Virus record (IMG/VR): IMGVR_UViG_3300001598_000045
Location: 64,001 to 76,554 of that record
Direction: 5' to 3' (one strand)
Source: a virus
Lineage: Duplodnaviria > Heunggongvirae > Uroviricota > Caudoviricetes
DNA length: 12,554 bases
The notes under the pieces are model-generated. The model was given only the letters and a program-made list of their open reading frames with translations. It was not told where the DNA came from and did not search any database. Of the stretch, positions 838 to 9,739 are shown piece after piece (the first letter of the stretch is position 1; each line of letters starts with the position of its first letter). The translations under genes and the position numbers were made by a program.

Positions 838-1173
838 TTAAATCTTAGTATTTTTTAATCCTTGTAATGCAGCACTAATTGCATCTTCATAGGCATCATT
901 ATATTCGAATGATCGTCCATCAATTACATTATCAGACTCAATTTCTACTACTATCCAGGAATATATATTACCATCAGGCATTTCATCGACTATTATATAA
1001 ATACCTTTAGTTCTTAACCAACTTTTCATTTGTTGTATAGTAGGAATAGCAAAACATTTATCGTCTATTATAACTCCATTACTATTTTCTGGATCAAGTA
1101 AATCAAGTTGTGCTCCTAGAGAATAAGCTAATCTTATTTGCTCTTCTGTACAATATCTCTCAAATTCTTTCAT
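838..1173 (-). CDS. phage hypothetical protein, paralogue of 2618..2971
   Basis: Shares YCTE-Q-x3-A-x2-LGA-x-L, PT-x-QQM-x2-WL and a C-terminal A-I-x2-AL helix with 2618..2971. Confidence 0.8.
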   Translation of the reverse strand: MKEFERYCTEEQIRLAYSLGAQLDLLDPENSNGVIIDDKCFAIPTIQQMKSWLRTKGIYIIVDEMPDGNIYSWIVVEIESDNVIDGRSFEYNDAYEDAISAALQGLKNTKI

Positions 1174-1951
1174 CTTTAATTAAATTTTTGTAAGTTCTCC
1201 AATACATTAATGGTAATTTATCTAATTGTGCAAATCCATATAATCCACAACTAAAAAACTTATGACATTCCATTACATAAGTATCACCATCTATTTCATC
1301 TACATAAACATCTAATGTTCCCTCTTTTAGTAAGCCATTTAATTGATATATATAACTATCAATAGACTCTTTATTAGGAAATGCAAATGGATTACCTGAA
1401 TAGTTTTTTATATCTACAGCTTCTCCATTATGAATAAATACTCTCCATTCAGAAGAAATATGATCATCCGGTATTAAACTAGATATCTGAACATCTTTAA
1501 GTCCGGCTCTTCTAATATCATCTAATGTAAAATAAACACCATTCTTAGGATTTTTTATTTTTTCATTATCTTTTGCATAGAGTCCGCCTAAAATATGCCA
1601 AGCAGTATTAGTTTCATCTAGTACTATATTATTTACAGCTCTACCTAGATTCATACTATTACTTAAAAAACATTCAGGAACATTTAGTGGTTTTAGTGTT
1701 TTATTAGCCACCTCATCACCAAAATATGTTCTAATATATTTTTCTACAAATTCAATAGTACCAATAGGACACCATTCGGATGGATCAATTTCATGTAAAG
1801 TTTTTAAATTTACAATGTCTGATAAATCACTATATATAAATTTAAAACTATTATCTTTATCTTTCCAATCCCAATATTCTTTCGATCTTTTCATTTGATA
1901 ACACTGATCTAATGTTATCTCATTTCTAATAAGTTGCAATATAAAATTCAT
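1160..1951 (-). CDS. ATP-grasp protein, R2K clade / DUF4343-like
   Basis: Motifs PIGTIEFV, PLNVP, SEWRVFIHNG, YSGNP, TLDVYV and VMECHKFFSCGLYG match my recollection of DUF4343/R2K ATP-grasp proteins. Recognised by eye. Confidence 0.7.
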   Translation of the reverse strand: MNFILQLIRNEITLDQCYQMKRSKEYWDWKDKDNSFKFIYSDLSDIVNLKTLHEIDPSEWCPIGTIEFVEKYIRTYFGDEVANKTLKPLNVPECFLSNSMNLGRAVNNIVLDETNTAWHILGGLYAKDNEKIKNPKNGVYFTLDDIRRAGLKDVQISSLIPDDHISSEWRVFIHNGEAVDIKNYSGNPFAFPNKESIDSYIYQLNGLLKEGTLDVYVDEIDGDTYVMECHKFFSCGLYGFAQLDKLPLMYWRTYKNLIKDERI

Positions 1952-1952
1952 A

Positions 1953-2234
1953 TTATTTCTTAATTTCTTTTATAACTTTCAATGCTCCTTTTGCTTTATA
2001 TTTTATACTTGCTATATTATGAGCAAGATTTCCTGTAGTAGTGTGCTCCAACTCTTCAATAATACCTTCAAGTATACATTTAACAAAATCTGGATCACTT
2101 ACATTATATTTACTCTCAGGATTTTCATCAGCCCACTTTGCTCCTCTTTCAAAATCACGTCTTCTTCGTAATTCAAATTCTCCAACTGGAAATTCATTAC
2201 AGGCAGCACTATAAATTTGTTCCTCCCTACTCAT
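1953..2234 (-). CDS. phage hypothetical protein
   Basis: 93-aa ORF. The FERGAKWADENP segment resembles a short-protein family common in Bacteroidales phages. Confidence 0.7.
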   Translation of the reverse strand: MSREEQIYSAACNEFPVGEFELRRRRDFERGAKWADENPESKYNVSDPDFVKCILEGIIEELEHTTTGNLAHNIASIKYKAKGALKVIKEIKK

Positions 2235-2616
2235 TGGTTTTCTTTCGTTTTTTATAATAATATTTTAAATCATCTGCTGGCCAATCATAATGATACAGGT
2301 CATCTATTTTTACTCTAGCACTGTATTTTTCTCCATCATTACCTAAATAATCTATATCAACTTCATTGATCCTCATACATAAACAACGAACTTTAATAAC
2401 CCTAGCTAGATAGATACCATAATAAAACATATCATTGTTGGTATCCTCTTTTTCTAGTTTATCAATCTCTCTTTTATGTTTTCTTAATTTATCCCAGAAA
2501 GTTTGTTTCTTGTAAGGTTGATAATGTACAGCAAAGAATATACCTCCATATCCCTTTGCCATATGTGCTTCATAAGTTTCTGCAAATTCAACTAATGATT
2601 CAAATACTTTTAACAT
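2227..2616 (-). CDS. hypothetical protein (129 aa)
   Basis: ORF overlapping or abutting its neighbours in the same-strand run. Confidence 0.7.
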   Translation of the reverse strand: MLKVFESLVEFAETYEAHMAKGYGGIFFAVHYQPYKKQTFWDKLRKHKREIDKLEKEDTNNDMFYYGIYLARVIKVRCLCMRINEVDIDYLGNDGEKYSARVKIDDLYHYDWPADDLKYYYKKRKKTNE

Positions 2617-2617
2617 A

Positions 2618-2971
2618 TTATTTTTTATTTTCTAAGTAATCAAGTGCAGTGTCAATAGCAGCTAATTCTGCTTCTTTCCTAGTTTTATAGTATGGAGTCG
2701 ATTCCCTACTATAATAGTCAATCTCAAATTCTTTAGTACTTAGATCTTTATAATCTATATAGGGCTGATATCCTCTGTCTCTGAAAAAATCAATATCAAT
2801 AACAATATTTTTTTCATCTTCTAACCAACCTATCATTTGCTGAGTCGTTGGAACTTCAATTTCTATTTTAAGATCAGGTTTTCGTAAACGATAACTATGC
2901 ATTAATGGCGCACCTAATTTATTTGCTCTTTTTGTTTGATATTCTGTACAATAATTACTATAACTTTCCAT
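2618..2971 (-). CDS. phage hypothetical protein, paralogue of 838..1173
   Basis: Carries the YCTEYQTKRANKLGAPL, PTTQQMIGWL and EAELAAIDTAL motifs shared with 838..1173. Confidence 0.8.
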   Translation of the reverse strand: MESYSNYCTEYQTKRANKLGAPLMHSYRLRKPDLKIEIEVPTTQQMIGWLEDEKNIVIDIDFFRDRGYQPYIDYKDLSTKEFEIDYYSRESTPYYKTRKEAELAAIDTALDYLENKK

Positions 2972-3630: not shown

Positions 3631-4422
3631 CTAATCCTCCATTGAATTTAAAGCTTTCATACTAATAACTGGCTTGATAAAATATAAAATCTCACAACTT
3701 GGTTCTAAGAGTTTTACTATTTCGGCCGTTTCTTTATAAGCCATAGGAGATTCATCGATAGTTCCTTTTCCGATCGATGTTGAATATATACCCTCCATTT
3801 GCTTTTGAAATTCGGCCGTAGATAATAACTCTTTTGCTTTTGATCTTGACATTACACGACCAGATCCATGAGGCGCACTATAATTCCAATCTTCATTACT
3901 TTTACCGGAACATATAGCTAAACCATCCCTCATATTAAATGGAATTACAACTTTTTCTCCCAGGTATGATCTAATTGCACCCTTTCGAATAATATGATCT
4001 TCCATGTCTATATAATTGTGGGTTGATCTTATTTCTTCAATTACTTTAGCTCCATTTATCTTTTTAAATATGGCGCTAATTTTCTGGGCTATGAATATAT
4101 GGTTAAATTTTGCATATGCCTGAGTAATAACCATATCTGTAATGTAGCCCTTAAGATCCTCGCCATAAAGATATCCCGTCGGCTTTAATTCTGCTCTCAT
4201 CTTAGCCTCTTCATTAAAACACAACTGAGCTATTTTACTTTTATCCTTCGTCGTCTCTCTAATTATTCTTTGACGCGCTTTTAACTCTTTTCTATCTATC
4301 TCACCTTTTTCTGCACGTCTAGACCAATATGCCCAAACTTTAATACCAAGATTTCTAGAACCCGTATGTATAGTAAAAGCATAGTTACCTTCAGGAGTTA
4401 CACCAATCTCAATAAAATGATT
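3631..4422 (-). CDS. rtcB: RtcB RNA ligase, exon 2 (263 aa: NHFIEIG...SMED)
   Basis: Carries the RtcB C-terminal motifs NHFIE, IHTGSR, HNY, RKGA, SAPHGSGR (guanylylated-His motif) and DESPMAYK. It begins immediately after intron omega-G at 4423. The TTG 'start' at 4425 in the track is intron sequence. Confidence 0.93.
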   Translation of the reverse strand, partial: NHFIEIGVTPEGNYAFTIHTGSRNLGIKVWAYWSRRAEKGEIDRKELKARQRIIRETTKDKSKIAQLCFNEEAKMRAELKPTGYLYGEDLKGYITDMVITQAYAKFNHIFIAQKISAIFKKINGAKVIEEIRSTHNYIDMEDHIIRKGAIRSYLGEKVVIPFNMRDGLAICSGKSNEDWNYSAPHGSGRVMSRSKAKELLSTAEFQKQMEGIYSTSIGKGTIDESPMAYKETAEIVKLLEPSCEILYFIKPVISMKALNSMED

Positions 4423-4433
4423 CAAATTTGTTA

Positions 4434-5122
4434 CTAAACTATAATTAATCTCTTTTCCAAATCTTTATTTCTTTTGATTTTAATAATTTTCGATCTAAAC
4501 TTAATAAATTATTATCATCATAGTACAATAAGCCTGCTAATTTTACAGCATTTTCTCTAGTTACTATAATATTGTAAACATTATCTCGTTTATTTCTATT
4601 TAAATGTTTTTCAATTCCTAACTCATCTTTTAAAAATCTTAAATAATTTATTTTTAAATTTTCACTTTTAGTTACTAAACTAATAAATGGTATACCTGTA
4701 GAGGTAAAGCCAATACTACCGTCGCCATCTATTACCCCTCTCCAAAAATCATATTTTTCAAAACTAACAGTTGGAATATTTGCGTTCAAGGTTTTTTCCT
4801 TAATAGGAAATCCACAGCTAATTAATCCATCCCTAAATACTTTCAAATGATTTGTAAATAACACCGTTGTATAATCTTTACCATTTGAAAAATTCGTTTT
4901 TCTAGTTCTTGTATGTATTTTTGAATTTTCAATAATGTTATATAGTTTTTGTACTATATCAAAATCTCTTTCTTGGACCTCTAAAGTAACCTTTCCACGA
5001 TTTCTTGTAGTTAAATACAAAGAACCGTCAGTAATTAGGAGTCCAAATATATAACTATCTATTTTATTCATTTATTTTATTAAATTATTATATTTATTAT
5101 CTATTGATTAATTATAGTTTAG
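4434..5122. repeat. perfect 17-bp inverted repeat (4434-4450 / 5106-5122) flanking the endonuclease ORF
   Basis: + strand ctaaactataattaatc (4434-4450) is the exact reverse complement of gattaattatagtttag (5106-5122). The endonuclease stop codon lies within one arm. Confidence 0.9.
4445..5071 (-). CDS. intron-encoded LAGLIDADG homing endonuclease (two-motif, 208 aa)
   Basis: Two LAGLIDADG helices, YIFGLLITDGSL and FWRGVIDGDGSI. The ORF lies wholly inside the intron. Confidence 0.9.
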   Translation of the reverse strand: MNKIDSYIFGLLITDGSLYLTTRNRGKVTLEVQERDFDIVQKLYNIIENSKIHTRTRKTNFSNGKDYTTVLFTNHLKVFRDGLISCGFPIKEKTLNANIPTVSFEKYDFWRGVIDGDGSIGFTSTGIPFISLVTKSENLKINYLRFLKDELGIEKHLNRNKRDNVYNIIVTRENAVKLAGLLYYDDNNLLSLDRKLLKSKEIKIWKRD

Positions 5123-5368
5123 GATAGGTCATTTCTGCCTATCTCTATAGATTCAATATTCTCTATAGTTCGGAGCACACCTTCACCCTATATAGTCATA
5201 GTATATAGAGTGCCCAAGTCCCTCTGCTCTCTACGATGGTATATAATATAAATATTATATACTTATCTCGGAATTATCATCTCAGATTTTCCCGATATGG
5301 ACGAGTTTAACTATTAGCATCTATTAAATGCTACGGAGGCAATCATAACTATTAAATTAGATTAACTC

Positions 5369-5887
5369 ACCTCCGCCAATTGACCCTAAAGACTTATAAA
5401 ATACACCAAGATCCATTCCTATTCTTTGTGTAAATTTTCGTAAACCTTCTTCAGAAATATCAAAGTCTTCTATCATTTCTGGCCATTGTTGTTTAGCTCG
5501 AGAATATTCAGACTTCATAAACTTAATAAAATCTTTCATCTCAAAACTAGCCTTATCCTGAAGTTCCTTACCAAATTTTACTTCTTTCCTAATTCTATGT
5601 TCTATTAATGCATACTCTTCCGGATTCACTGGTTTATCTAAAATATAAGTGTCAATACAACAACCTATATCACAACCTACATGATCCGGATTTACACATT
5701 CATTTATAGGAGAAGTAAAACCTATAACAATACCCGCCCCAACATGAGTATCTGGCATTATTCTTATCTTAGAGTCTTTAAAAGCTGGATTATCACATAT
5801 CTTATAAACCATACTTTTTGTCTCTTCTTCTAATGTCTCTGCAAAAATCTTACAATCTTTACAATTTTCTCCTTTAATCTCTAACAT
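5369..5887 (-). CDS. rtcB: RtcB RNA ligase, exon 1 (173 aa: MLEIKG...GSIGGG)
   Basis: Carries the RtcB N-terminal motifs IMPDTHVG, IGF, VGCDIGC and LGSIGGG. The reading frame hits TAA 3 codons into the intron. Confidence 0.93.
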
Positions 5888-5903: not shown

Positions 5904-5919
5904 TCATATATAAGGAAAA
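5904..5919 (-). promoter_or_regulatory. putative phage promoter motif TTTTCCTTATATATGA upstream of rtcB
   Basis: Identical 16-mer at 6928-6943 and an 11-nt match at 9757-9767. Each lies 14-17 nt before an ATG and just after a terminator. Confidence 0.55.
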
Positions 5920-5920
5920 T

Positions 5921-5950
5921 AAGAAAAAGAAAAGGGATTTTTATATCCCT
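5921..5950 (-). terminator. intrinsic terminator
   Basis: AGGGAT-N6-ATCCCT hairpin (5950-5933) followed by a U-rich tract, directly after the 5957..6109 ORF. Confidence 0.6.
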
Positions 5951-5956
5951 CTAACT

Positions 5957-8884: not shown

Positions 8885-9739
8885 TTATTTATTATAATTT
8901 GGATTAGGATTTTGCTCAACTTTTTCAAATGTTCCATATTTTGCAAAATACTTATTCCAATCACAAGTTTTAACCTTAAAGATGATACGTTCACCCATAC
9001 GAGTCTTTAATCCCAATGAAGTCTTTAAAACTAATCCTTCAGCATCATAATCCTTGTTTTCTGCAATAGTTGACTTAAATCCTTTCTTAACAAATTCAAT
9101 AGCCTCATCAATGGTCATTTCACCCATATAAGGTACATGAGGAGCTCCAAGTTTATCTGCAATCTCTTCCATTGCTAAGCGATTTAGATACAGGTTATTA
9201 ACTTTTACATCAAAGACAATAAAACCAACCCCATTAGATATATAGTTTCCACCTTTTTGTATCTTCACTCCATAACCTTCACCATAAATAGTATATAATT
9301 CGGGTATTTTATTCCAATCTGGCGTAAATACTCCAGTCTTTTCATTTTTAGTACCCCATTTATGCTCTTCCCATTCTTCAATAGGAATCCGGCGTTTCAG
9401 ACCTAAAGAGCTTAATACTTTATCTAATGGAAAATTCTCCTCCATAAACTTAGCTAAATGAGCAGGTACTTGAGCATCATCAGATTTTCCTTTAACTGCC
9501 ATTTCAAAATAAACGGCATCTGGAATTTGTGAATCATTAATAAAACTTAAACCATTCCAGATTTCAATTCTAATATTAGTTCCATCAATTTTTTCAGTAG
9601 CTTCAAATTTTACATTGAACTTACGTAAAAATTCTAACTCAGGACTTACTAATTCATTGAAAGGCATAATAATATTATTTACATCTCTTTTAAAAATAGT
9701 ATCAATTTTCTGATACGTATTTATACTTCTATTTGCCAT
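8885..9739 (-). CDS. ATP-dependent RNA ligase, Rnl2-like nucleotidyltransferase
   Basis: Motif I TEKIDGTN (adenylated Lys), III IYGEGYG, IIIa FIVFDV, IV EGLVLK and V IFKVK are present in order. No OB-fold follows, which argues against a DNA ligase. Confidence 0.8.
   Translation of the reverse strand: MANRSINTYQKIDTIFKRDVNNIIMPFNELVSPELEFLRKFNVKFEATEKIDGTNIRIEIWNGLSFINDSQIPDAVYFEMAVKGKSDDAQVPAHLAKFMEENFPLDKVLSSLGLKRRIPIEEWEEHKWGTKNEKTGVFTPDWNKIPELYTIYGEGYGVKIQKGGNYISNGVGFIVFDVKVNNLYLNRLAMEEIADKLGAPHVPYMGEMTIDEAIEFVKKGFKSTIAENKDYDAEGLVLKTSLGLKTRMGERIIFKVKTCDWNKYFAKYGTFEKVEQNPNPNYNK

Follow-up and report, generated by a model that had tools for sequence, protein, structure and literature searches.

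A probable mobile group I intron at the Asn-His motif of a phage rtcB gene

Known phage introns and the interrupted rtcB gene

That phage genes can harbor group I introns is textbook knowledge. Phage T4 carries self-splicing introns in the conserved enzyme genes td (I-TevI), nrdD/sunY (I-TevII) and nrdB (I-TevIII), and the endonuclease open reading frames (ORFs) are looped out from a peripheral helix. These introns belong to subgroup IA2, contain the helices P7.1/P7.2 and encode endonucleases of the GIY-YIG or HNH type; they spread by homing, and their presence or absence varies among relatives. Free-standing homing endonucleases that target intron sites are known from cyanophage psbA and from T3/T7-like DNA polymerase cases. 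Here, an insert of 946 nucleotides (nt) in the RNA ligase gene rtcB was analyzed, which lies in a 12,554-nt stretch of phage DNA (the window; positions 64,001 to 76,554 of the IMG/VR record IMGVR_UViG_3300001598_000045). Its anatomy, conservation, covariation, site specificity and presence/absence polymorphism make it very probable that the insert is a mobile group I intron. In comparison with the T4 introns, it has GAG alone between P7 and the 3' strand of P3 (P3'), a LAGLIDADG enzyme, and rtcB as its host gene.

The Jug (jumbo gut) phages of Bacteroides and Phocaeicola provide a second point of comparison. According to their description, 136 genomes hold 2513 group I introns, about 18 per genome, together with 17 LAGLIDADG endonucleases, and the introns sit in many essential genes (PMC12880540). 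As hosts, its main text gives terL, nrdD and DNA polymerase, and rtcB is absent from it. In the same study, 37 of 76 predicted group I introns had metatranscriptome reads in support of splicing (PMC12880540), which is the nearest direct evidence bearing on the present insert. The likeness lies in ORF-less introns at the same rtcB site, which were found in viral contigs of 200-400 kb and in human-gut contigs of 370-393 kb. The window is the final 12.5 kb of a 76.5-kb record for which CheckV estimated a completeness of ~20%, and it therefore comes from a large phage. By analogy, it appears to be the same kind of phage as the Jug phages, large, uncultured and gut-type.

RtcB of bacteria, archaea and actinobacteriophages is also known to carry inteins (PMC4760082; a 2025 survey, bioRxiv 10.1101/2025.01.02.630785), as an earlier note on this DNA had stated for some archaea. 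Like the present insert, these are selfish self-splicing elements with a LAGLIDADG-type endonuclease at an rtcB catalytic motif; unlike it, they are spliced at the protein level and lie in frame. The window insert has stop codons and RNA structure and would therefore be spliced at the RNA level. The earlier note knew of no group I intron in rtcB, and no paper naming rtcB as a host was found in the literature; the gene is also unnamed in the group I intron database paper, and a 2025 paper on Bastillevirinae introns mentions no ligase.

All genes of the window are on the minus strand. The main features of the locus are the following:

5369..5887, minus strand: rtcB exon 1, 173 codons, ending in ...GSIGGG; matches positions 14-153 of 426 of PF01139 (E 5.7e-10)
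4423..5368, minus strand: putative group I intron, 946 nt, first base G5368, terminal G 4423; its removal restores the RtcB frame
4445..5071, minus strand: LAGLIDADG homing endonuclease ORF, 208 amino acids (aa), in the P9.2 loop; PF14528, E 3.3e-12
3631..4422, minus strand: rtcB exon 2, 263 codons and stop, starting with NHFIE; matches positions 154-425 of 426 of PF01139 (E 7.6e-34)

The C-terminal half of RtcB is contained in the ORF 3631..4425, and both halves adjoin exactly in the Pfam profile (153/154). When 4423..5368 was deleted, an ORF for a 436-aa RtcB with ...GSIGGG|NHFIE... was obtained. This product is colinear, and gap-free at the junction, with uninterrupted homologues of 429-446 aa, the closest of which (P0005) is 68% identical over 436 aa. 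It has a full-length match to PF01139, keeps the catalytic Asp/Cys and retains the motifs GCDIGC, NH, HTGSR, HN and PHGSGR. Left unspliced, the frame continues to a TAA at 5357..5359 and gives a 176-aa fragment (ORF 5357..5887) that ends in GGGELI*, three codons into the insert. This stop, and the position of the endonuclease ORF in another frame with a start and stop of its own, led to the rejection of an intein; a group II intron was also considered and rejected.

In Pyrococcus RtcB, metal M2 is ligated by His203, and the GTP phosphates are contacted by Asn202 (PMC9745838). This agrees with the metal and GTP contacts that the earlier note had assigned to the NH pair. A phmmer search of PDB RtcB chains with the C-terminal half aligned only HTGSR and PHGSGR, to the His234 and His404 regions; the putative correspondence of the window NH pair to Asn202/His203 therefore rests on the conserved motif, by which it is supported.

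Anatomy of the rtcB insert

The insert could be divided into the following elements:

5334..5346, minus strand: internal guide sequence AUGAUU-GCCUCCG (13 nt); its 3' part forms P1 and its 5' part P10
5109..5333, minus strand: putative ribozyme core, from P2 through the 5' strand of P9.2
5315..5333, minus strand: P2
5299..5305 with 5213..5221, minus strand: P3
5290..5295 with 5268..5273, minus strand: P4
5285..5287 with 5276..5278, minus strand: P5, with a 6-nt loop
5235..5267, minus strand: P6/P6a
5225..5231, minus strand: 5' strand of P7, G[A]GAGCA with a bulged A, pairing with 5172..5177
5222..5224, minus strand: J7/3, GAG, the 3 nt between P7 and P3'
5184..5212, minus strand: P8
5178..5183, minus strand: J8/7, AAGGUG
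5172..5177, minus strand: 3' strand of P7, UGCUCC
5145..5168, minus strand: P9
5123..5143, minus strand: P9.1
5109..5120, minus strand: 5' strand of P9.2, a 12-base-pair (bp) helix
4436..4447, minus strand: 3' strand of P9.2, containing the TAA stop of the endonuclease ORF
within 4423..4447, minus strand: conserved 13-nt 3' tail AGUAACAAAUUUG, ending at G4423

The end of exon 1, CGGAGGU (5369..5375), pairs with GCCUCCG (5334..5340) to form a P1 of 7 bp with U5369.G5340 at the 5' splice site. Immediately 5' of this guide strand, AUGAUU (5341..5346) pairs with AAUCAU at the start of exon 2 (4417..4422) to form a P10 of 6 bp. The 13-nt guide is the complement of the ligated exon junction, with the U.G wobble as the sole exception, and the final base of the intron, 4423, is a G. 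The coordinates 4423..5368, the 436-aa product, P1, P10 and the terminal G had all been given correctly in the earlier note.

The helices P2 to P9.2 follow in canonical order, including J3/4, J6/7 and the P3/P7 pseudoknot. P7 has a bulged A, a neighboring G-C pair and the flanking J6/7 and J8/7, as expected of the predicted guanosine-binding helix. The P7.1/P7.2 helices found between P7 and P3' in the phage-typical subgroup IA2 are absent from the window intron, where GAG stands in their place. Every core position that is invariant in the family described below is intact, and all helices are paired. When the intron was folded without constraints and without its ORF loop, P2, P3, P4, P5, P6, P9, P9.1 and P9.2 were recovered, and the energy was ~6 standard deviations below that of mononucleotide shuffles (z about -6).

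The 208-aa ORF matches PF14528 with 46.9 bits (cut-off 22.5). It is full length and contains two LAGLIDADG motifs, GLLITDGS and GVIDGDGS, each with its acidic residue kept.

Relatives, covariation and distribution

A search with the endonuclease identified two viral contigs (L005 and L006) in which a homologous intron with its endonuclease interrupts rtcB at exactly the same codon boundary. Three collections were then searched with a 26-base pattern taken from the P7/P3' and J8/7/P7' strands. The IMG/VR viral contigs, mostly of 200-400 kb, contained 37 loci, and the RtcB halves flank the intron at residue 173/174 in 36 of these. A bacterial set with one genome per species contained 60 loci and metagenome contigs 54; in the latter two sets combined, 110 of 114 loci were flanked by RtcB. 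Most family members are ORF-less and 214-415 nt long, and every long member carries a LAGLIDADG homologue after the core. These homologues are 37-64% identical to the 208-aa protein and lie at the corresponding position in all ORF-bearing members, and the endonuclease family is always found within or adjoining rtcB. In some members the endonuclease is frameshifted (L082, L142, L080, L051) or truncated (L094, L081), as is expected of the homing cycle.

Compensatory changes were counted in two alignments: a MAFFT alignment of 17 sequences that was not fitted to the model, and a model-based alignment of 95 distinct sequences. In the MAFFT alignment, 92.6% of the cells hold a standard pair, versus 33-46% when the partners were slid by 1-3 columns; 37 pairs changed on both sides (11-21 when slid), with 122 double-change cells. 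The corresponding values for the model-based alignment were 96.4% paired cells (36-44% slid), 40 pairs changed on both sides (16-27 slid) and 983 double-change cells (at most 164 slid). None of 500 shuffles attained the observed values in either alignment. Double changes were seen in P2, P3 (outer pairs), P4, P5, P6, P8, P9, P9.1 and P9.2, and RNAalifold recovered P1, P2, P5, P8, P9 and P9.1 unaided. P9.2 covaries completely: the helix has 12 bp in the window and 9 bp each in L005 and L006, and the three sequences are unrelated.

The guide covaries with synonymous changes in the exon: GGC/GGU go with guide G/A, GGA/GGU with guide U/A, and GGAGG/GGUGG with guide CCUCC/CCACC. All but one of 92 sequences (91) have the U.G at the splice site, 98% of the P10 cells are paired, and complete members share the conserved tail ...UG|. 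The complete group I intron that the earlier note had placed at GGG|NHF of a phage rtcB is thus borne out by anatomy, covariation and homologous introns at the same site.

These observations also bear on a split gene without splicing, in which a free-standing endonuclease would have been inserted and the rtcB halves would be translated separately and assemble as a two-piece ligase. A TTG (4423..4425) directly before the AAU of exon 2 could start the C-terminal half, the homologous locus of phage BSP36 is annotated in GenBank as three separate proteins, and free-standing homologues of the endonuclease adjoin an intact rtcB in L007 and L008. However, the TTG corresponds to the conserved UUG that closes the intron tail, and most members, although they lack any ORF, retain a structured insert (214-415 nt) in which compensatory changes are extensive. 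Moreover, the guide pairs with both exons and covaries with their synonymous changes, and a split between Gly and Asn-His would bisect the metal and GTP site. We therefore regard the two-piece ligase as extremely improbable.

Some observations weigh against the insert being a group I intron. The Rfam model RF00028 gave no relevant match in the whole window at its gathering threshold, nor in 4300..5500 at E values up to 10, and it matched neither the ORF-less L010 nor five bacterial members at E values up to 1 or 10. The P1 loop, P6a and P8 of the window intron contain AT-rich expansions. The model-based alignment leans to the structure of the model because it was fitted to it. Lastly, P7 is invariant within the family, partly since the search pattern fixed it, and its pairing therefore rests on two distant relatives, Lak-A1 and BSP36. 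The P7 of Lak-A1 is C[A]GCGUA/UACGCG and that of BSP36 is the canonical GACUA/UAGUC; the bulge and the G-C pair beside it are preserved in both.

The missing Rfam match, the composition of the window intron (GC 0.32, the most AT-rich of the family) and its extra AT-rich sequence could also be read as decay of a former group I intron that no longer splices here, rtcB being a pseudogene. Against this stand the intact invariant core positions and paired helices, the open exons with the catalytic motifs Asp/Cys, Asn-His, HTGSR, HN and PHGSGR kept, and the full-length endonuclease ORF with both acidic residues, so that decay appears highly improbable.

As a control, RF00028 detected the three proven introns of T4, only one of them above the cut-off. 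The connection to Rfam was provided by BSP36, a cultured Bacillus subtilis phage (Herelleviridae, Bastillevirinae). Its rtcB (MH707436.1, insert at about 119.4-120.5 kb) is likewise split at GGU|, with an endonuclease ORF after the core; the GenBank record lists 'tRNA processing protein 1', 'homing endonuclease' and 'tRNA processing protein 2' and has no intron annotated. RF00028 matched this insert with 72.6 bits (cut-off 50), and the family model R1 matched it from the same 5' splice site with 54 bits (E 1e-16) and over its whole length, including the P1 guide and the conserved L9.1 loop. Unlike the window intron, the BSP36 insert has a canonical P7 and a 70-nt extension of P5 and is recognized by RF00028. 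Since both models match it, the window intron is a divergent relative of an Rfam-recognized group I intron at the same site; it diverges from the recognized type in its non-canonical P7 sequence and also lacks P7.1/P7.2. Of the covariance-model check proposed in the earlier note, the direct match to the window thus failed, and the match by way of the homologous BSP36 insert succeeded.

The other distant relative is a group I intron in the 540-kb megaphage Lak-A1 of Prevotella (L004, MK250015.1, about 1534..2723), which is unannotated in the record. It ends in the same ...AACAAAAUUG| tail and lies upstream of an ORF other than rtcB. Its 312-aa LAGLIDADG ORF is open only if TAG is read as sense and precedes the P3-P9 core. 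About 45 nt resembling P7.1/P7.2 separate P7 from P3' in this intron, whereas the window intron has only GAG there.

A weak RF00028 match (21 bits) was seen elsewhere in the record of the window, at G000:C1:51722..51832 on the minus strand (L001). It was not repeated by cmscan and was rejected as a member of the rtcB intron family, since R1 did not match it.

Outside of phages, the intron occupies this site in the chromosomal rtcB of about 60 bacterial species (L049-L108), in some of them together with the LAGLIDADG ORF. The carriers include Nostocales (Nostoc, Scytonema, Calothrix, Tolypothrix) and other cyanobacteria, Pyrinomonadaceae, Armatimonadota, Chthonomonadales, Shimazuella, Paenibacillus alkalitolerans and a Gracilibacteria metagenome-assembled genome. 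Their RtcB is only about 25-30% identical to the phage RtcB. Intron-less rtcB was found in related and unrelated phages, among them LoVEphage, L048, L007 and hundreds of GenBank phages. The junction reads GGU|AAU in all intron-bearing alleles and GGU|AAC, GGA|AAC or AAU|AAC in intron-less ones. Both the intron-less alleles and the further insertions at GGG|NHF for which the earlier note had proposed to search were thus found, the latter in viruses and bacteria. A megablast search of the locus against GenBank phages gave no match, and a search for relatives of the RtcB C-terminal half returned no viral relatives, its peptide words being too specific.

In L007 (2531..3259), as in L008, a free-standing LAGLIDADG gene encodes a protein 45% identical to the window endonuclease. 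An uninterrupted rtcB of 414 aa lies directly downstream (3281..4525 in L007), with GSN|NHF instead of GGG|NHF at the site. The arrangement resembles the free-standing endonucleases of the psbA and DNA polymerase cases, other phages holding ORF-less introns at that rtcB site. Together with the ORF-less and ORF-bearing introns elsewhere, it looks like stages in the uniting of endonuclease and intron.

An ORF-less member of 237 nt (L025, 5771..6007; 209 bits to R1) lies in a viral contig of 89 kb, close to the 3' end of an ORF of 313 aa that looks structural and is not rtcB. It is one of the few members viewed outside rtcB, the four unflanked loci of the 114 being left out, and indicates that the intron family can move to other sites.

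The N-terminal half of rtcB in L011 (3137..4600) contains an in-frame insertion of ~310 aa that starts with C-L-D-C after GCDIS and ends with ...TGN before CGM. Its frame and termini indicate an intein at the metal site equivalent to Asp95/Cys98, so that rtcB of this type is occupied at two separate catalytic motifs, at one by an intein and at the other by a group I intron. About 12 viral loci resemble the L011 insertion, which was found in many relatives of Jug size; the window rtcB has no intein.

Predicted splicing and homing, and the surroundings of rtcB

Splicing, endonuclease activity and homing are predicted from the sequence as follows. The rtcB gene would be transcribed as a single pre-mRNA, in which the intron would fold into a group I core and its guide would pair with the last 7 nt of exon 1, placing the U.G of P1 at the splice site. 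Transesterification would begin with the attack of an external guanosine, bound in P7, after U5369. The 5' part of the guide would align exon 2 through P10, the terminal G4423 would take the place of the cofactor, and the exons would be joined as GGU|AAU. The ligated junction is expected to read ...GGCGGAGGU|AAUCAUUUU... (GGAGGU|AAUCAU), which would restore the 436-aa RtcB with its Asn-His contacts to GTP and metal. During co-infection, the 208-aa LAGLIDADG protein would cut intron-less rtcB at GGG|NH, and repair would copy the intron into the cut allele.

The earlier note had also proposed that splicing could gate the capacity for RNA repair. In this case the intron, besides being selfish, would time or gate the production of RtcB. 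The one argument for it is the logic that unspliced RNA yields the 176-aa fragment. In contrast, the same element occurs in rtcB of unrelated bacteria and phages and alternates with intron-less alleles, and related phages hold about 18 introns each, reportedly distributed over many genes (PMC12880540). The shared sites, the intron-less alleles and the many introns therefore fit site-specific homing and not regulation selected by the host, and we consider a regulatory role very unlikely. That RtcB synthesis depends on ribozyme folding and free guanosine nucleotide and so times RNA repair in infection is a very doubtful proposal. If true, timed RNA repair would act, for example, against host anticodon-nuclease defences, and every group that the element has reached (cyanobacteria, Acidobacteriota, Armatimonadota, Firmicutes and gut phages) would show this dependence. 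Nothing was found that backs the gating proposed in the earlier note, and a functional link between RNA ligation and RNA self-splicing is unsupported. As the same intron is found in rtcB of many phages and bacteria, its presence most likely reflects an endonuclease that targets a conserved site and not such a link. The intron is best regarded as a selfish element of the ordinary kind and is a single copy from a widespread family specific to rtcB.

The distribution of this family of rtcB introns was extended to about 60 bacterial species. With splicing as predicted, rtcB in these phages and bacteria would be a whole gene and not two fragments or a pseudogene, while gene callers and public records split it, as in BSP36. 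The standard RNA library misses members of the window type, and a dedicated covariance model is therefore needed. With this family, rtcB can be added to the recurrent intron hosts td, nrd, DNA polymerase, terminase and psbA. All stages of the homing cycle are seen at this single site: endonucleases that stand free, introns with and without an ORF, decayed ORFs, alleles that lack the intron and, at a second catalytic motif, an intein. The site thereby offers a compact system for the formation of mobile introns and their movement between bacteria and phages.

Upstream of rtcB, CCTTATATATG is located 18 nt before the start codon (5905..5915, minus strand). It is preceded by a hairpin with a GC stem and a T-run (AGGGAT...ATCCCT TTTTCTTTTTC on the minus strand, 5929..5951), which looks like the terminator of the gene upstream. 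From this arrangement, rtcB may form a transcription unit of its own. The window was found to contain no tRNA genes. Another RNA ligase, from a different family (PF09414, E 8e-17), is encoded at 8885..9739 on the minus strand, 3 kb upstream of rtcB, and an R2K-type ATP-grasp protein is encoded downstream of rtcB, at 1160..1951 on the minus strand.

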